Both the position numbers and the translations under genes were made by a program. This document shows, piece after piece, positions 5,497 through 40,220 of a DNA stretch of 64,000 nucleotides. The number at the start of each line of letters is the position of its first letter. Position 1 is the first letter of the stretch. The stretch covers positions 92,285 through 156,284 of the forward strand of contig CAZDBO010000001.1 of NCBI GenBank assembly GCA_964503755.1, in the 5' to 3' direction. The DNA comes from an uncultured Candidatus Saccharibacteria bacterium. GTDB taxonomy: Bacteria > Patescibacteriota > Dojkabacteria > JAOAGR01. Under the pieces are notes generated by a model. It was not told the DNA's origin. It made no database searches and saw nothing but the letters and a program-made list of their open reading frames with translations.

Positions 5497-6414
5497 ATGA
5501 AAAAAGTTTCTATCATAATACCAGCATACAACGAGTCAGGACAATTGGATATCACTATTGAAAATCTAGAGCAGGTTTTAGCTGATGCTGATTTTAAGAA
5601 AGAGATAATAATTGTAGATGATGGATCTACAGATGATACATGGGCTCGGATCAAACAACTAAAAGAAAAATATAAACATATTGTCGGTATAAGATTTAGT
5701 AAAAATTATGGAAAGGATAATGCAATATTTGCAGGATTAAAATCGGCTAGTGGCGATGCAGCTGTAGTTTATGATGCAGATATGCAGTTTCCAGCAAATA
5801 TGATATTAGATATGTATAAATATTGGACTACTGGATATAAAATTATTGAAGGAATCAAAGAAAATAATGATCCTGCAAAAGATAATGTTTATTTATTTTT
5901 TGCAAATGCCTTTTATTTTGTATTAAAACTTTTTACAGGTATCGATCTAAGAAGAAATTCAGATTTTAAGTTTTTGGATAGACAAGTTGTAGATGTTATT
6001 TTGCAGCATCAGGAAAGTAATGTATTTTTTCGAGGAATAATAGAGACTCTAGGTTTTCCAAAGCTTTCTTTGTCTTTCAAAGTACAAAATCGCATTGTAG
6101 GTACAAGTAAATGGAGTTTTCGTAACTATTTAAACATGGTTTACAATTCTATTATTCTCTTTACTACATTACCACTTCAGATAAGCTTAGTTTTTACTGT
6201 AATATTTTTTATGTTTTTGCTTTTTTTGTCGGTAGATACTTTCTTGAGATGGTTGCTTGGATTTTCTTTGGAAGGTTTTACAACAGTGATTTTATTGGTC
6301 ATCATAGCAACAATAGCAATCATGATAAATTTAAGTATTTTGGGGATTTATATAGCCAAGATTTATAATGAAATAAAACGCCGACCTAAATATATAATTT
6401 TAGAAAAGCTATAG
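5497..6414 (+). CDS. GT2 glycosyltransferase, GtrB/DPM1/CsbB-like polyprenyl-phosphate hexosyltransferase
   Basis: IIIPAYNE, IIVDDGSTDDT and DAD motifs of the GT-A fold. Two C-terminal TM helices as in GtrB. Confidence 0.8.
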   Translation: MKKVSIIIPAYNESGQLDITIENLEQVLADADFKKEIIIVDDGSTDDTWARIKQLKEKYKHIVGIRFSKNYGKDNAIFAGLKSASGDAAVVYDADMQFPANMILDMYKYWTTGYKIIEGIKENNDPAKDNVYLFFANAFYFVLKLFTGIDLRRNSDFKFLDRQVVDVILQHQESNVFFRGIIETLGFPKLSLSFKVQNRIVGTSKWSFRNYLNMVYNSIILFTTLPLQISLVFTVIFFMFLLFLSVDTFLRWLLGFSLEGFTTVILLVIIATIAIMINLSILGIYIAKIYNEIKRRPKYIILEKL

Positions 6415-33450: not shown

Positions 33451-34041
33451 ATGAAAGAAGGTAAAAAAAATCAAAAAATAAAAAAATTGGATAAACAATT
33501 CGATGGTGCTACAAACGAAGAAAAGTTTAATGAAAAGCCGTTGAATAATGATAATGATTTAGACGAACACGGAATAAATGATTCTAAGGTAGATCAAAAT
33601 TTTCAAGAACATACTCAGGAACAAATAGAAGATTATAAAGATAAATATATTCGACTGCAGGCAGAATTTGCTAATTTTGCTCGACAAAAGGAACAAGAGA
33701 TTTTATCAGCTACTAATTTTGCCAAAAATAATATATTACTTAGGGTTTTAGAAGTTATAGATGACATCGAAGCCTATCTAACACAGGAAAATATAAATGA
33801 AGAAGTAAAGAATATTTTAAGTATTTTACTAGCTAAACTGAATCTTCTTATAACTCTTGAGGGAGTAACTGTAGTAGAAATTAATCCTGGTGATGATTTT
33901 GACTATACAATAGCCGAGGTTGTAGATACCACTCCATCTCAAGATGAATCCCAAAAAGGTAAAGTAGCTTATGTGATCAAGAAATGCTATAAAATTTATG
34001 ACAAAGTTTTAAGAACGGCAAAAATCATCGTTTTTAAATAA
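33451..34041 (+). CDS. grpE: nucleotide exchange factor GrpE
   Basis: 196 aa. YIRLQAEFANFARQ coiled coil and C-terminal beta domain (VAYVIKKCYKIYDKVLRTAKIIV). Confidence 0.8.
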   Translation: MKEGKKNQKIKKLDKQFDGATNEEKFNEKPLNNDNDLDEHGINDSKVDQNFQEHTQEQIEDYKDKYIRLQAEFANFARQKEQEILSATNFAKNNILLRVLEVIDDIEAYLTQENINEEVKNILSILLAKLNLLITLEGVTVVEINPGDDFDYTIAEVVDTTPSQDESQKGKVAYVIKKCYKIYDKVLRTAKIIVFK

Positions 34042-34925
34042 TGAAAAAATATATCAGGAAACGTATACTGCGTATAAAATATACTGATCTTATACAGCCA
34101 TTAGTGACTTTAATAATTGTTGGTTTGATAGGATTTCTAGTATTTAACATGTTCACTGGTGGTCAAGAGCAGGAGCAAAGAGTTATAAAAGAAATTTATA
34201 AAATATTTACTTTCGATGAAATGGTTCAAAATATGACCACCGGCAAACTACAAATACTTACCAATGGAGTCATATATTTTTATACTGATAACAACTCTGC
34301 TTCTGCTCAGACAGCGAATACACAAAATACAAGCACAGTTACTCTAACTCAGGTACAATCTACACCTTCTCAAAATAAAGACACTTTGATAGAAAGAAAA
34401 TTAGATAATCACTATTTTTATATTGATAACGGAAAATTGATCAGAGTAGAGGATAGAAATTTCGGTGCCAATAATACAATTTTCATTGATAGGGATGGTT
34501 CAGTTGTTGTTGCTTCTGGATTGACAGGTAAATATATTAGGTATCCTGAACCGGCTGATGATGAAAGTGATGAAATAAAATCAATTTTCTTCGGAGTGAA
34601 GAACTTCGTTACAAGTATTTATCCAATAGGCGCATTGATTGATGATTATAAAAATGAGAGATTTTTCCCAGTGGAAAGAGCTAATAACATATTTAGTGGA
34701 AAATGGAGACATCCTCTTTTTACATCAGATAAAGTATTAAATATAATTATAAGTATAGATGGTGCTACAGGTTTTGTTGATACAATGAAGATAGCTACAG
34801 TGCCAGAAACTTCGATTACATTTCAGGTTAGAAAATTAACTGAAAATCATGATTTGTATTTTTTACCACAAGGATATAAAGAACAAGAATTGGATTACAA
34901 ATATCGAACAAAAAATAATACATAG
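34041..34925 (+). CDS. hypothetical membrane-anchored (N-terminal TM) extracytoplasmic protein
   Basis: 294 aa. One N-terminal TM helix (LVTLIIVGLIGFLVF). No recognisable domain. Confidence 0.4.
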   Translation: MKKYIRKRILRIKYTDLIQPLVTLIIVGLIGFLVFNMFTGGQEQEQRVIKEIYKIFTFDEMVQNMTTGKLQILTNGVIYFYTDNNSASAQTANTQNTSTVTLTQVQSTPSQNKDTLIERKLDNHYFYIDNGKLIRVEDRNFGANNTIFIDRDGSVVVASGLTGKYIRYPEPADDESDEIKSIFFGVKNFVTSIYPIGALIDDYKNERFFPVERANNIFSGKWRHPLFTSDKVLNIIISIDGATGFVDTMKIATVPETSITFQVRKLTENHDLYFLPQGYKEQELDYKYRTKNNT

Positions 34926-34928
34926 AAA

Positions 34929-36869
34929 TTATTTTATCCATCTACAGTTAAGTTTTTGGTTATTTTCTAGATTAACTATATTTGGACATACAGATCTGTG
35001 TATTTTGATGCCACTAAATCGTGTAACAACTGCAATAATTTCATCGCCAAAAATCGGCTTACAGCATTTTCCAAAGTTATATTCACAATTTTCCAGTCCA
35101 TCAATAATTATAGTTTTGTTAGTTTTGTTTGTAACGGATGTTGATTTCTTATTTTGTTTAGAGAATTTAACGATATTGTTATTATCTTTATATATTATTA
35201 TCTCTTTAATTATAGATTCTAATGTTCGACTTTTGATCCATCCCTGGGCTGTACGGACAAATAAAGTTTCCTCGCTATCCAAATTTAGTTTTTGTATTAT
35301 TTTTTCTTTATTTTCACTTGTAATTTTTTTCCATGAAAGACTAAAGTGTTCATTTAACAAAAAATCTAATTTTATTTTTCCTATATTGATGAGTTCTTCC
35401 TTTTGTGCAAATTTACGATATTCAGTTCTGATTTTATCTTTTGTAGATTTCATTTTGGCTATTTCAAGCCATAATAAGGAAGGTTTTTTGTTTGTTTTAG
35501 AAGTAATAATCTCTACAATATCCCCATTATTCAAAATATGATCCATTTTTACATGAGCATTGTTTACTTTTGCACGGATAAAATTGTTACCAACTGCAGT
35601 ATGGATTGCATATGCGAAATCTATTGGGGTTGACCCTTTTTCTAATTCGATGATTTTGCCTTTTGGGGTGATTACAAAAATCCTGTCATCAAACAGATTT
35701 ATGCTATAGTCAATTCCTTGAGACCATTTATTTAAATCTTCGGTCCAACTGTATTCGCTATTAGCAAGTGCATGTTTGCGATTTGCCAATTTATAAGCTA
35801 TGTGTGAAGCCGGTCCAAATTCGTTATAATGATGCATGTCGTCAGTTTTGATTTGTATTTCTACAAAATGATGACCATATTGGATCGTGGTTTGTAAAGA
35901 TTTATACCCGTTTGGCTTCGGTTTGGCTATATAATCATCAAATTCGCCTGGTAAGTAGTCTAAGTTTTGATGAACAATGCCAAGTATTGTATAACAATCT
36001 TTAGGTTCCCCAGTTATAACTACAGATATTGCTATAAGATCCTTTATTCTGTTAATTTTGTCTAGGTCAAATTCCTTTATTTTACCCTCGCGAATATATT
36101 TATGTATTTTATTGTAAATTGAATAAACGGATTTAATCCTACCGAATATTCGATAAGGAAATGATATATTATTAATTTTAATCAGTTCATCAACTTTTTT
36201 AATTATTTTGTCTAAAGTAGAAGGATTAATTTTGATCTTTTCCTGAACTACACGTTTTATATTGTTATAAAGTATTGGATCTTTCTTAAAAAATGCTATA
36301 TCTTCAAGCTCTCTTTTCCAAGAGTGTATACCTATATATTCGCAAAGTTGTACATATACATTGAGAGTTTCTACTCCATACCTTTGTTGTTTTTCTGGTT
36401 TTAATGCGTCAATAGTACGCATATTATCAAGTCGATCAGCAAGTTTTATAAGTAAAATTCTTATATCCTGTACCGATCTAACAATTAGCTTTCTTAAATT
36501 ATCAAATTCTGCATATCTTTCTAGTGATTTATCTGCTATAGCATCTACTTTTGTGACTCCATCGACAAGTGTTGCTATTTCCCAGCCAAATCTTTCAGCA
36601 ATATACTTTTTGTCAACATTACAATATTCAATAGTGTCATGAAGTAGGGAAGCACAAACTGCTTCTTCACTAATGCCAAGTTTTGCTGTATCAATAGCTA
36701 CTCTTAAAGGATGAACTATATACGGATCACCACTTTTACGGATTTGTCCTTCGTGTAATTTGTATGCCTCTTTAAATGAGTTTAAAATAAGGTTCGTATC
36801 ATATCCTTTCTCCGAACATATATTTAACAATTCTTCTTTAAGTGATGGAATGTCGTTATTAACTTTCAT
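34929..36869 (-). CDS. rel: bifunctional (p)ppGpp synthetase/hydrolase Rel (no C-terminal ACT/RRM domain)
   Basis: 646 aa. HD hydrolase (HPLRVAI, LLHDTIE), RelA/SpoT synthetase, TGS (DFAYAIHTAVGN) and zinc-finger domain (CxxxxxCCKPIFGDEIIAVVTRFSGIKIHRSVCPN). Ends right after the zinc-finger domain. Confidence 0.85.
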   Translation of the reverse strand: MKVNNDIPSLKEELLNICSEKGYDTNLILNSFKEAYKLHEGQIRKSGDPYIVHPLRVAIDTAKLGISEEAVCASLLHDTIEYCNVDKKYIAERFGWEIATLVDGVTKVDAIADKSLERYAEFDNLRKLIVRSVQDIRILLIKLADRLDNMRTIDALKPEKQQRYGVETLNVYVQLCEYIGIHSWKRELEDIAFFKKDPILYNNIKRVVQEKIKINPSTLDKIIKKVDELIKINNISFPYRIFGRIKSVYSIYNKIHKYIREGKIKEFDLDKINRIKDLIAISVVITGEPKDCYTILGIVHQNLDYLPGEFDDYIAKPKPNGYKSLQTTIQYGHHFVEIQIKTDDMHHYNEFGPASHIAYKLANRKHALANSEYSWTEDLNKWSQGIDYSINLFDDRIFVITPKGKIIELEKGSTPIDFAYAIHTAVGNNFIRAKVNNAHVKMDHILNNGDIVEIITSKTNKKPSLLWLEIAKMKSTKDKIRTEYRKFAQKEELINIGKIKLDFLLNEHFSLSWKKITSENKEKIIQKLNLDSEETLFVRTAQGWIKSRTLESIIKEIIIYKDNNNIVKFSKQNKKSTSVTNKTNKTIIIDGLENCEYNFGKCCKPIFGDEIIAVVTRFSGIKIHRSVCPNIVNLENNQKLNCRWIK

Positions 36870-37875
36870 AGTTTATAAAATATTTTGTACTTTTTCCGTT
36901 TCCTTCCGACTTTAATATACCCTTATCAGATAAGTATATTAAGTCTCGATAAGCTGTCATTGGAGATACTTTAAATAATTTGCAATATTCATTGCGGTTA
37001 ATATAAACTTTTTTTCTTAAAATATTAATTAGATTAATCTGTCTTTCATTGAGATCTAAATTTTTTAGTTTGTTTTCAAATACAGCATATGAAGTTCTAT
37101 TTTTTGATTCAAGTATGTTATAAAATTCTTTTGATATGAGGTTTATTAGTTCTGTTACAAAGTTTTCCGAATTAATATTTTTTTTAATAAAATTATTTAA
37201 ATTTGTTATCTGTAAAATAGAGGATGCTGTTGGAATTGTACCGTCTAGATCATATTGATAATTATGTAGTACTAGTTTAAATAGCAATAATCCTACAATG
37301 AAATTAAATGCATAAAATGGAGCGGTGCTAATTATTAGTGAAAATATTATTATAGACTTAATGAGTGGGTGAGTTTCTTTTTTTACGGAAGCGTAATTTA
37401 TTGCTTCTATGATTATATTATTTATATTATCAATCTTTGGGTATTGCAAAAAATCTGGATCATAAGCTTCTTTATGATTTATCTTATCAAATATATTTCT
37501 TGTTCGACTAATATATATCTCGCTTATGATGTTTTTTTGTATCAATCTTAATATCTGTTGTAAGTCATAAAAATTTATTTCTGTTGTAGTACTTTTGTTT
37601 AATAAATACTGATTGGCATCAAAATAATTTTTTACTATCCATTCTTCTTTGGTCTTGGATATACCAGTGTTAATAATTTTTCTTATATCACATTTATTTC
37701 TTTGTATTTTAATCAAATCACAAATATATGATATTTCTTCTTCTACAGATATGTTTTGTAGATCTTCTAATCTTTTTTTATTATTTTTTGTTATTTTATT
37801 TATATAATATATAAGAGCTTCTATTTTAGATATATAAATTAGAGCAGAATCACTTATCGTATACAAGATATCCAT
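36859..37875 (-). CDS. Fic-fold protein with degenerate active-site motif and C-terminal winged-HTH
   Basis: 338 aa. Fic-like helical core (HPLIKS...STAPFYAFNFIVGLLL where HPFxDGNGRxxR is expected). C-terminal KLFKVSPMTAYRDLIYLSDKGIL HTH. The stop overlaps the rel start by 11 nt. Confidence 0.45.
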   Translation of the reverse strand: MDILYTISDSALIYISKIEALIYYINKITKNNKKRLEDLQNISVEEEISYICDLIKIQRNKCDIRKIINTGISKTKEEWIVKNYFDANQYLLNKSTTTEINFYDLQQILRLIQKNIISEIYISRTRNIFDKINHKEAYDPDFLQYPKIDNINNIIIEAINYASVKKETHPLIKSIIIFSLIISTAPFYAFNFIVGLLLFKLVLHNYQYDLDGTIPTASSILQITNLNNFIKKNINSENFVTELINLISKEFYNILESKNRTSYAVFENKLKNLDLNERQINLINILRKKVYINRNEYCKLFKVSPMTAYRDLIYLSDKGILKSEGNGKSTKYFINYES

Positions 37876-37931
37876 TATAAATAAATTATAACATCACACA
37901 TACAGTTCTAACTTTGTCACAATATATCTTT

Positions 37932-40220
37932 TTATTCTGACGTTTGATTATTCGAATTTTGTTCTTCACAAAATTTTATATCATTATCTATATCCCAAAT
38001 AATATATAATTCTTTATTGGAAAGCTTGTCTTTTGATTCTTTGAATAAATTATAAATCTTCAAAGCTTCGGTACATTGATTACTGAGTTTGTATAAATCA
38101 GCTAATCCTTCATTATATTCGTCTAAAATCGGTAAATATATCAAAGCTTCCTGAATGTAGCGTGATGCTTGGTTTGCATTGTTGGTATCCAATAATATTC
38201 TTCCAATTCTAAATAATGTATCGGGATGACGATTGTAAAGATTTAATACATTTTGAAAGTATGCTAGAGCAGTATTGTAAGAATCAAAATTAGTATTTTT
38301 ACTGTTTGAAAATGCATTTTGTAGTCTGCCAATTTCATAGTAATAATATCCCATCAAATAGTGGTTTTTATATTCGTAAGGATTATTAGAGATTGCTCGA
38401 TTAAGAATTGTTATATTATTGTTTACTATATTATTAATAAAATTTTGATCTCCTTCAGAAATTTCATAATTTGGATCAACTCTTTTATTTACAATTAGTT
38501 CATTGATTTTATTGGTTAATATATTTAGCTGTGCAGTTGCAAATTCTCTTAGATAAATGTCATTATATGGCTGCCAAGAGATTGCGTTTAATATATGATT
38601 TGTATATTCAGAAAATAATTTTTCATCGTTAGAGCTTCTAGAATATTCAATTAAATATTTCTTTCCAGCGTTGATATAATAGTTACCAACTCCTATAATG
38701 AATAAGTTGTAAATAGAAAATCCAATTATTATCATTATTATTGTTGGTACAACGTAATTAAACCCAACTATTGGTTTGGAAAATCTACCTTTTGCAAAAA
38801 GTAAAATTTTTGATGCTGGATTTTCTATATTCATAAATGAAACAAGTAATATATTAACAAAGAATGCAAGCATCAATGCTGTAGTATCCAGTCTATAAAG
38901 AAGCATAAAGAAAACTACAAATGCATTAGTTGCACCCAAAAATACAGTAGTAATATCATAATTGTAGATACCATTTTGGATCATTCTAAGTATTGGCCAC
39001 AAAAATATCAATAATATTAACAATATACCTATCACGCCTAAATCGTGAATTATTTGAAATATAAATGTAGATGCATGTATAGCTCGTAGTTCATAAACAG
39101 ATGGTGCTTGAGCGTTGATGGTAAGAGGAGTTTGAATTTGTCCATTAATATTTGCAGGGTTTTGCAGGCCAGATGGCTTGTATACATCAAAAGTATACAT
39201 ATAAGATCCAAACCCATTTCCAAGAAGAATAGAATTAATGTTAGATTGAGAATATTTTGACAATATTACTCGCCATGATAAATCAGGGCTTTGAGCACGT
39301 ACTGAGGGTAAGAGTATTCCTAATTGGACCAAAATTATGTAAGAAATAATACCAACTAACCATGGAATTACCACGATTAGATGAAATATTGTTGGCTTAA
39401 ATTTAATTGATGTGCGTATTATCGAATACATAAATGTAATAAAGACAAAAATCAAACTGGTTTCAAAAATAGGTATAGGTAGTGAAATAATTTTTGTTAC
39501 TAAAAAAAATGATAGTATATTAACAAGAGTTGTAAATAGATCAATCATTAAAATAATCTGATTTTTTCTACTGGAGATTTCTGAGTTTAAGATACGAATA
39601 ATGTTTATATATCCTAAACATACTGCAATAAAGAATACAAATGCAGCTGATCTTAGATCGCCACTAGGATAAAAATTTACATTATTTATGAAATTGCCTA
39701 TTGATGGATTAGAGATGATAAATTCTGTACTTAATCTTATAACTAAATACAATCCGGATAAACTAATACCCGTATATATCGCTCTTAATAATGGAAAGAA
39801 ATTCGCTCTATTTTCAATAATATTTAATGATAAAAATGCGAAAATAATTAGATTAATAAACTCGATAAATGAATTATCAATAGTGTAAAAATTACCAAAC
39901 ATGTTATTTAGATAGAAAGCAGAATAAAATATAGAAAATATACTCAACAGGCCAAGAACAATTAGAAATATATTGTGTGATGTAAATATAAACCTTATTT
40001 CCTTCTCTTTGTATATCTTATAAAACCAATACGCAATCAAAGATAAATTGATAATCGAAAGGATCAAAACTTTAGAAAAAGCTATTGATCCAAAGTATCC
40101 TAATGAATCAAAATATATGTTTGGGTTGATATAAGGATTTAGAAAGAAGAAAAATGAAGCAATTAAAACATAAAATATATTCTTTAGTGCTATTTTTTTT
40201 AATGCCGATTTAATATTCAT
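37932..40220 (-). CDS. polytopic membrane protein with C-terminal TPR repeats (O-antigen ligase/Wzy_C-like)
   Basis: 762 aa. About 12 predicted TM helices in the N-terminal 480 aa, then TPR-like repeats (YKNHYLMGYYYYEIGRLQNA...). Confidence 0.4.
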   Translation of the reverse strand: MNIKSALKKIALKNIFYVLIASFFFFLNPYINPNIYFDSLGYFGSIAFSKVLILSIINLSLIAYWFYKIYKEKEIRFIFTSHNIFLIVLGLLSIFSIFYSAFYLNNMFGNFYTIDNSFIEFINLIIFAFLSLNIIENRANFFPLLRAIYTGISLSGLYLVIRLSTEFIISNPSIGNFINNVNFYPSGDLRSAAFVFFIAVCLGYINIIRILNSEISSRKNQIILMIDLFTTLVNILSFFLVTKIISLPIPIFETSLIFVFITFMYSIIRTSIKFKPTIFHLIVVIPWLVGIISYIILVQLGILLPSVRAQSPDLSWRVILSKYSQSNINSILLGNGFGSYMYTFDVYKPSGLQNPANINGQIQTPLTINAQAPSVYELRAIHASTFIFQIIHDLGVIGILLILLIFLWPILRMIQNGIYNYDITTVFLGATNAFVVFFMLLYRLDTTALMLAFFVNILLVSFMNIENPASKILLFAKGRFSKPIVGFNYVVPTIIMIIIGFSIYNLFIIGVGNYYINAGKKYLIEYSRSSNDEKLFSEYTNHILNAISWQPYNDIYLREFATAQLNILTNKINELIVNKRVDPNYEISEGDQNFINNIVNNNITILNRAISNNPYEYKNHYLMGYYYYEIGRLQNAFSNSKNTNFDSYNTALAYFQNVLNLYNRHPDTLFRIGRILLDTNNANQASRYIQEALIYLPILDEYNEGLADLYKLSNQCTEALKIYNLFKESKDKLSNKELYIIWDIDNDIKFCEEQNSNNQTSE

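Follow-up and report, generated by a model that had tools for sequence, protein, structure and literature searches.

Fusions of a Fic domain with a helix-turn-helix (HTH) were catalogued in 2009 (PMC2686095), and active members with the architecture of the protein described here bind DNA. The HTH of CccR from Yersinia pseudotuberculosis binds palindromes and represses the protein's own promoter as an α1-mediated dimer, independently of its FtsZ-AMPylating toxicity (PMC9755527). SoFic must dimerise to bind its own promoter (bioRxiv 10.64898/2026.07.09.737422), and in CbFic2, which carries a DeoR-type winged HTH (wHTH), DNA binding controls the enzyme (PMC10628234). That some Fic clades may be inactive was considered in a 2015 study (PMC4454073), and MMSYN1_0805 of JCVI-syn3.0 is an inactive Doc/Fic protein (His to Ser) with an HTH that is essential, its role being unknown (PMC13621843). 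A remote Fic-like N-terminal region followed by a C-terminal winged helix is also found in the DUF1612 proteins of the Rhizobium Y4cF type (Kinch et al. 2009, PMC2686095). Here we describe a gene from a 64,000-nt stretch of an uncultured Candidatus Saccharibacteria bacterium, placed by GTDB in Dojkabacteria (contig CAZDBO010000001.1, positions 92,285–156,284; the whole stretch is hereafter the window, and coordinates refer to it). The gene (36859–37875, minus strand), supported by an ATG-start open reading frame (ORF), by homologues and by its ratio of nonsynonymous to synonymous substitution rates (dN/dS), encodes a 338-residue degenerate Fic-fold protein with a C-terminal wHTH, which is labelled FicL in this analysis. 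By fold and descent FicL belongs to the Fic superfamily, but it cannot be counted among the Fic enzymes, since HxFx(D/E)GNGRxxR, the motif that defines them, was tested for and is absent. With modest confidence, we favour the reading that FicL regulates transcription as a wHTH dimer, its Fic domain serving as a non-catalytic scaffold.

Fic fold of FicL

Searches with the single FicL sequence recovered only its C-terminal domain. A Pfam scan found HTH_DeoR alone and no Fic match, and NCBIfam and PDB searches returned the HTH and nothing of Fic; the Fic assignment therefore needed a family profile. A profile made from an alignment of seven homologous sequences matches the catalytic core of the PDB Fic protein 4rgl (E = 1.7e-3, covering the profile segment hPlikaivfmalinsksPfvglnyiss) and, over the wHTH, Coxiella CbFic2 (8cil, E = 4.4e-5), while the PADLOC SoFic model matches FicL residues 79–337 (E = 3.3e-7, 28 bits). 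A HMMER search of 1.84 billion representative sequences with the family profile gave 1576 matches at E <= 1e-3, 172 of them at E <= 1e-10. From rank 57 downward, canonical Fic proteins are matched end to end (E of 1e-23 to 1e-12), among them P0057, which carries HPFIDGNGRTGR and aligns over profile positions 6–339 (E = 2.2e-23).

Pfam Fic (PF02661) directly matches 20 of 71 degenerate relatives, and two of the 71 are matched by SoFic-like_C (PF21248). SoFic (3eqx/3zcn) and CbFic2 (8cil) are among the best full-length structural and profile matches to FicL, wHTH included. The all-helical Fic core is found at residues ~60–265 (37081–37698, minus strand), and the helices that line the groove are retained. 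A Fic helical core had been proposed for this gene in an earlier reading of the sequence (the original prediction), and the matches to 4rgl, 8cil, canonical Fic proteins, the PADLOC model and, in relatives, PF02661 bear it out, so that we regard the fold assignment as secure.

Loss of the active site and the inhibitory helix

In Fic enzymes, the catalytic His of the motif is the general base and its acidic residue binds Mg2+. The backbone of the GNGR segment forms the anion hole for the α- and β-phosphates, and the last Arg binds both the γ-phosphate and the inhibitory Glu. The corresponding FicL segment, APFYAFNFIVGL, can be matched to HPFxDGNGRxxR position for position: when 131 full-length relatives are aligned with MAFFT, A185-P-F-Y-A-F-N-F-I-V-G-L196 (37288–37323, minus strand) occupies the columns of H-P-F-x-(D/E)-G-N-G-R-x-x-R. 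The His and the Asp/Glu are each replaced by Ala, both Gly residues by Phe, and the two Arg residues by Ile and Leu, respectively, which agrees with the replacements originally predicted. FicL thus keeps two of the eight key residues, Phe and Asn, together with the Pro (P186, F187 and N191), and these three are consistent with a purely structural role in the motif loop.

The Dojkabacteria orthologues are all equally degenerate, most of them reading SPFVGLNYISS, which excludes sequencing error as the source of the FicL motif; no orthologue has the intact HPFxxGNGR that would have pointed to such an error. The degenerate motif differs between sub-clades (APFYAFNFIVG, SPFVGLNYISS and APFLAGNQITA). 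The class II inhibitory helix is reduced to a remnant (37702–37734, minus strand), located by alignment with canonical members. Here the canonical S-[ST]-x-I-E-G-N aligns to I51-C-D-L-I55-K-I57, placing Ile55 in the column of the inhibitory Glu, and the class II motif (S/T)xxxE(G/N) is not present in FicL. None of the 87 locus-encoded family members in which this region can be aligned has the inhibitory Glu.

N-terminal helix, flap and winged HTH

The N-terminal helix of FicL spans residues ~5–29 (37789–37863, minus strand), as marked by invariant columns and by a modelled helix at residues 9–29. Y5, I7, D9, L12, I15 and E19 are invariant among orthologues, and the helix aligns with α1 (Y.IT..L..I..IE) of canonical SoFic-type members. 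In CccR, CbFic2 and SoFic, α1 is the dimer interface (PMC9755527, PMC10628234, bioRxiv 10.64898/2026.07.09.737422).

The C terminus (residues ~270–338; 36862–37068, minus strand) is a DeoR-type wHTH with the recognition helix VSPMTAYRDL. Pfam HTH_DeoR matches residues 278–322 (E = 2.2e-7, 31 bits against a cut-off of 21), and this match, along with that of the family profile to the 8cil wHTH, supports the C-terminal HTH that had been predicted. The domain has a predicted helix-helix-helix-β-β topology and is basic (pI 9.6). Conservation within the family is highest here: across the 71 relatives, which share ~17–30% identity with FicL, the invariant or near-invariant wHTH columns are L275, R278, Q279, S304, T307, A308, R310, D311, L312, G325, G327 and Y332, and the sole such columns elsewhere are N83, P186 and N191. 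The same conservation analysis found no clade-specific conserved surface motif outside the HTH.

The flap region (residues ~118–144) has no predicted strands in the structure model, where its predicted local distance difference test (pLDDT) score is below 50. The canonical YxPP segment of this region is lost, the FicL flap reading ISRTRNIF..., and a G-K-x-R element at the start of the flap is conserved in most family members.

Purifying selection and the wider family

Between FicL and the orthologue at locus L001, which are 80% identical, dN/dS is 0.11. In the same comparison the neighbouring genes range from 0.04 to 0.18 (Rel 0.06, the upstream membrane protein 0.09, GrpE 0.18). FicL orthologues at ~30% identity keep the syntenic position, the length, the architecture and a highly conserved HTH, and the reading frame is intact in all relatives. 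FicL is under purifying selection and the gene is functional, not decaying; given this dN/dS and the conserved orthologues, it is not a pseudogene.

Beyond the close orthologues, 80 wider-family metagenome loci were recovered through an HTH pattern. All those that can be aligned have a degenerate motif with at most four of the eight key residues, typically keep the Pro, Phe and Asn, and have no inhibitory Glu. Their GC content of 27–45% fits small, low-GC genomes of the Candidate Phyla Radiation (CPR) type, taxonomy being confirmed for the Dojkabacteria set only; a further homologue search with a profile of the 71 sequences gave few matches, and the taxonomic breadth of the family rests on record titles, GC content and an anonymous representative library. 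Several synteny groups within the wider family are flanked by housekeeping genes, including those for UvrC, ParA/ParB, GatB, signal peptidase I (LepB), RNase HII, an MraY-like GT4 and UvrD. Public annotation labels these proteins "hypothetical protein" or HTH_DeoR only, with PF08220 as the sole precomputed domain.

The search of 1.84 billion representatives places the family at hundreds of clusters. Among the top 131 full-length representatives, 97 have four or fewer of the eight key residues and 31 are canonical (at least seven of eight). Canonical sequences cluster on a neighbour-joining (NJ) tree, with some degenerate groups nested nearby, and the tree suggests that there are several degenerate groups. 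Intermediates also occur: P0148 (LPFLDGNGRIAR), P0154 (SPFSDGNGRIAR) and P0144 (APFSRGNGRTAR) have lost the His, or the His and the Asp, and keep GNGR..R. P0102 and P0141 have likewise lost the catalytic His, with or without the Asp, and keep the GNGR..R anion hole. Judged from their motifs, these five sequences look like steps in the decay of an enzyme into a pseudoenzyme.

The overlap with rel

Immediately downstream of FicL lies rel (34929–36869, minus strand), identified with Pfam and NCBIfam as a long RelA/SpoT homologue (RSH) of 646 residues. Rel contains the HD_4 hydrolase, RelA_SpoT synthetase and TGS domains and a helical/zinc-finger region (TIGR00691, 519 bits), and it ends short of the C-terminal ACT/RRM domain that long RSH enzymes typically have, its match to TIGR00691 covering positions 2–598 of 687. 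The synthetase motifs YKSLQTT and EIQIKT appear non-canonical for several residues. The Rel orthologue of locus L009 is of nearly the same length (645 residues).

The TAA stop of FicL and the ATG start of rel overlap by 11 nt (36859–36869, minus strand), the sequence ATGAAAGTTAA being read as ...TAT GAA AGT TAA in the FicL frame and as ATG AAA GTT AA in that of rel. The overlap had been noted in the original prediction, and it recurs with the same length in the two 80%-identical relatives, L001 and L006. The 15 nt preceding the rel ATG contain nothing that resembles a Shine-Dalgarno sequence, which makes termination-reinitiation coupling plausible, and no terminator-like site was found between the two genes. 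From this arrangement, rel is probably co-transcribed with FicL in the window lineage, and translational coupling of the two is plausible within the window clade. Neither co-transcription nor coupling is a requirement of the FicL family.

In the window, L001 and L006, an M23 peptidase gene on the opposite strand precedes three co-directional genes, which encode a membrane protein with tetratricopeptide repeats (membrane/TPR), FicL and Rel; genes for a 294-residue protein, GrpE and FtsK then follow on the opposite strand. The same gene order without rel is found in L003, L005/L008, L010, L012 and the contig of P0007, and rel is absent from the junction of FicL with the 294-residue protein gene in L011 and probably in L069, where the family gene is unscored. 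L007 has rel after FicL in convergent orientation. In L009, rel lies upstream and divergent from the membrane/TPR gene, and the membrane/TPR–FicL pair is apparently inverted as a unit. L004 is without the membrane/TPR gene upstream of FicL, and its contig stops just past FicL.

When all ORFs of 89 loci were searched with the window Rel using phmmer, rel was found only in L001, L006, L007 and L009. None of the ~65 wider-family metagenome loci with a readable family gene has it, ~20 of these having ~8 kb of flanking sequence on both sides. On a rough NJ tree, rel-bearing and rel-free lineages are interspersed and the window clade forms a long separate branch. The proximity of rel is most simply read as a gene order inherited from a common ancestor and since altered by local inversions and losses. 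The rel overlap is an accident of gene order peculiar to one lineage and does not mark a functional module under conservation. FicL had been presented as a regulator attached to Rel, and conservation of the gene pair in relatives was proposed as a check on it; the pair fails this check, the co-directional overlap being confined to the window, L001 and L006 while rel is reoriented or absent elsewhere. A single shallow lineage is all that stands behind the proposed attachment of a pseudo-AMPylase to the enzyme of the stringent response.

The upstream membrane/TPR gene and other neighbours

A gap of 56 nt separates FicL from the membrane/TPR gene (37932–40220, minus strand), which is identified by synteny and by a TPR match and encodes a 762-residue polytopic membrane protein with ~12 predicted membrane helices and C-terminal TPR repeats. 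Of all the neighbours of FicL in Dojkabacteria, this gene is the most constant. It lies directly upstream of and co-directional with FicL in ten loci (~8 independent lineages) in addition to the window, is absent in L004, and moves together with FicL in L009. Only the TPR repeats were recognised in Pfam searches (with the whole protein, nine orthologues and the central loop), in NCBIfam and in sequence and profile searches of the PDB. A homologue search yielded just two sequences, and an AlphaFold2 model from two sequences was unusable (pLDDT 39.9). The loop motifs LLGNGFGSY ... AIHASTFIFQIIHDLGVIG look similar to those of O-antigen-ligase/Wzy_C-type proteins; Pfam gave no such match.

Alignment with L001 and L006 reveals a candidate extended -10 element, TGTTATAAT (37885–37893, minus strand), located 8–9 nt before the FicL ATG. 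The element is kept in L001 (~5987–5995) and L006, with a synonymous divergence (dS) of ~0.9 between the window and L001, and weakly suggests an internal, near-leaderless promoter that would drive FicL and rel. This reading is weakened by the AT-rich genome and by a generic promoter scan in which sites fell below the shuffled-sequence expectation.

On the other flank, the gene for the 294-residue protein (34041–34925, plus strand), whose start overlaps the GrpE stop, encodes an N-terminal membrane helix and has no match in any family library. It is conserved beside GrpE in those Dojkabacteria loci that cover this flank and lies beside rel in L009. The L005/L008 contig, CAZVIJ010000032.1, is titled uncultured Candidatus Saccharibacteria bacterium and has a GC content of 49.6%, yet its synteny is Dojkabacteria-like: it carries the genes for the membrane/TPR protein, FicL, the 294-residue protein, GrpE and FtsK in this order, with a FicL 50–63% identical to that of Dojkabacteria contigs. 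The contig may carry an incorrect taxonomic label, or this gene order may also occur outside Dojkabacteria.

Interpretation

We propose that FicL is a pseudoenzyme derived from a class II Fic AMP-transferase of the SoFic/CccR/CbFic2 type. Gone from it are the general-base His, the acidic residue that binds Mg, the anion hole formed by GNGR, the second Arg and the autoinhibitory Glu. With the whole catalytic apparatus lost, the Fic domain should no longer be able to bind or transfer a nucleotide, and it would survive as a structural scaffold. Selection has kept the N-terminal helix and, most strongly, the wHTH; since these were kept and catalysis was lost, FicL is most likely a dimeric DNA-binding regulator. 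It would continue the regulatory half of a dual function that was shown for CccR and proposed for SoFic. FicL and the upstream membrane/TPR gene, a conserved pair, are probably expressed together, and FicL may control its partner gene. In the window lineage, rel has come to sit immediately downstream, overlapping FicL by those 11 nt.

Several observations weigh against a dimeric DNA-binding regulator. Inverted-repeat scans upstream of FicL and of the membrane/TPR gene, together with the alignment to the 80%-identical relative, yielded no convincing conserved palindrome, the palindromes present being AT-rich. CbFic2 itself binds DNA rather unspecifically (PMC10628234). The conserved HTH residues of FicL are a generic DeoR signature that active relatives also keep; they show a functional wHTH and do not specify its DNA target. 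With its flap poorly modelled, FicL may still dock peptides. In three separate Dojkabacteria lineages (the window clade, L007 and L009), rel stands within one or two genes of the membrane/TPR–FicL pair, a proximity that common ancestral gene order accounts for.

FicL could be a non-catalytic adaptor whose dead Fic domain, acting as a permanent substrate trap, still engages the ancestral target by way of the flap and groove, tethering or sequestering it, possibly on DNA; candidate targets would be EF-Tu (the SoFic target), FtsZ (the CccR target) or a topoisomerase. The retained fold and groove-lining helices and the G-K-x-R element agree with such a role, and there are precedents in the degenerate Fic domain of BepC, which is reported to act by binding and not catalysis (PMC7842960), and in inactive VopS, which binds its target more tightly (PMC2686095). 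No part of FicL, however, is as poorly conserved or modelled with as little confidence as the flap, where the canonical PP that follows the hairpin is missing, and outside the HTH no clade-specific conserved surface motif was found, so that we regard an adaptor as unlikely. A partnership with Rel, in which FicL would bind and regulate the enzyme at a stoichiometry fixed by translational coupling and link it to the stringent response, draws on the conserved overlap in L001 and L006, on the lack of a terminator-like site between the genes and of an obvious Shine-Dalgarno sequence before rel, and on the presence of rel within two genes of FicL in L007 and L009. We judge it very unlikely: the co-directional linkage occurs in one shallow clade, rel is convergent in L007 and lies beyond the membrane/TPR gene in L009, at least six further orthologous lineages lack it at the locus, as do all of the ~65 readable wider-family loci, rel-bearing and rel-free lineages are interspersed on the NJ tree, and the sequence features of FicL are the same with or without rel.

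Alternatively, the Fic-like pocket might sense a small molecule, or have a non-canonical activity, that controls the wHTH allosterically, and a ligand-type domain joined to an HTH is indeed the architecture of one-component regulators. The pocket is lined by hydrophobic residues (A, F, F, I and L), and P0154 and P0144, which keep GNGR..R without the His, suggest that nucleotide binding without catalysis may have occurred at earlier stages of decay. In the window clade, however, every phosphate-binding residue is gone, and the variation of the motif residues between sub-clades argues against one conserved ligand site; a sensor therefore seems to us improbable. A SoFic-type single-gene anti-phage defence or toxin module has in its favour the PADLOC match and the architecture shared with Sofic defence proteins, which are reported to work by AMPylation (PMC12249575), an activity impossible in FicL. 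FicL also sits in housekeeping synteny conserved across deep lineages and not in a variable island, no small antitoxin-like neighbour gene was seen, and we consider such a function extremely improbable. As a candidate, a toxin-antitoxin or defence module is ruled out by the lost active site and the housekeeping synteny. That FicL is a functionless decaying gene, or an artefact of annotation or sequencing, is scarcely credible: the destroyed catalytic motif and the public "hypothetical protein" label would fit, but the frames are intact, dN/dS is low, the HTH is conserved and the family comprises hundreds of clusters. Sequencing error and a pseudogene were both ruled out as candidates by the degeneracy of the orthologues and by the dN/dS of 0.11.

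Taken further than a dimeric wHTH regulator, one may speculate that the dead Fic domain docks a protein of translation or the stringent response, either Rel at 1:1 through the overlapping frames or EF-Tu, and that the wHTH couples (p)ppGpp metabolism to promoter binding. More broadly, the low-GC dead Fic-wHTH clade and MMSYN1_0805 could together be a core, possibly essential, pseudoenzyme regulator of reduced genomes. We hold this extended proposal to be improbable.

In a large, low-GC, CPR-looking radiation, an enzyme-regulator of the SoFic/CccR type has shed its enzyme half, with intermediates in which the His is lost first and the anion hole later. The family is a natural experiment supporting an independent and sufficient DNA-binding role, and if FicL is a regulator, its recognition would add a transcription-factor family to genomes with very few regulators. 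Given the PADLOC SoFic match, automated searches for defence systems in CPR genomes might also score such dead copies as Sofic, and a function for the dead Fic-HTH class would address an open gene of the JCVI-syn3.0 minimal cell (PMC13621843). The rel overlap by itself carries less weight than it was originally given.

Comparison with known systems

Our literature search found no paper describing the CPR clade of FicL. The wider claim that a Fic pseudo-AMPylase regulator had not been described does not hold, as Fic and HTH fusions, DNA-binding active members and the inactive MMSYN1_0805 were already known (PMC2686095, PMC9755527, PMC10628234, PMC13621843). Bartonella BepC and AvrB, like FicL, keep a Fic/Fido fold without the canonical motif, and both function by binding. 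The DUF1612 proteins belong to a different Pfam family, and DUF1612 matched none of the 71 relatives. With DeoR-family regulators, FicL shares the HTH_DeoR signature and a VSxMTxRRDL-like recognition helix; those regulators, however, have an N-terminal HTH and a C-terminal DeoRC domain that binds sugar phosphates, whereas the HTH of FicL is C-terminal and DeoRC is missing. Membership of FicL in the DeoR family was ruled out on the position of the HTH and the lack of a DeoRC match.

The full architecture of FicL recurs in the active Fic proteins. CccR has the same succession of N-terminal α1, Fic core and C-terminal HTH, but unlike FicL it has an intact HPFxDGNGR and an inhibitory S59ARIEG, AMPylates FtsZ and is an effector of the type VI secretion system. 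FicL has neither motif and is encoded among housekeeping neighbours in a CPR genome. SoFic (Shewanella oneidensis SO_4266) and CbFic2 resemble FicL in carrying a DeoR-type wHTH C-terminal to the Fic core; both dimerise via the N-terminal helix and both bind DNA. They differ from it in being active (de)AMPylases, of EF-Tu and histone H3, respectively, that are regulated by the inhibitory Glu. For MMSYN1_0805, compared here by its description only, a substitution of the His alone is reported, whereas FicL has lost the whole motif and the inhibitory helix. The two proteins nevertheless share a Fic domain joined to an HTH, a reduced genome, a replaced catalytic His and a context without toxin-antitoxin genes, and the His-to-Ser change of MMSYN1_0805 is the one seen in most Dojkabacteria orthologues of FicL (SPF...) and parallels the His-loss intermediates of the wider family.

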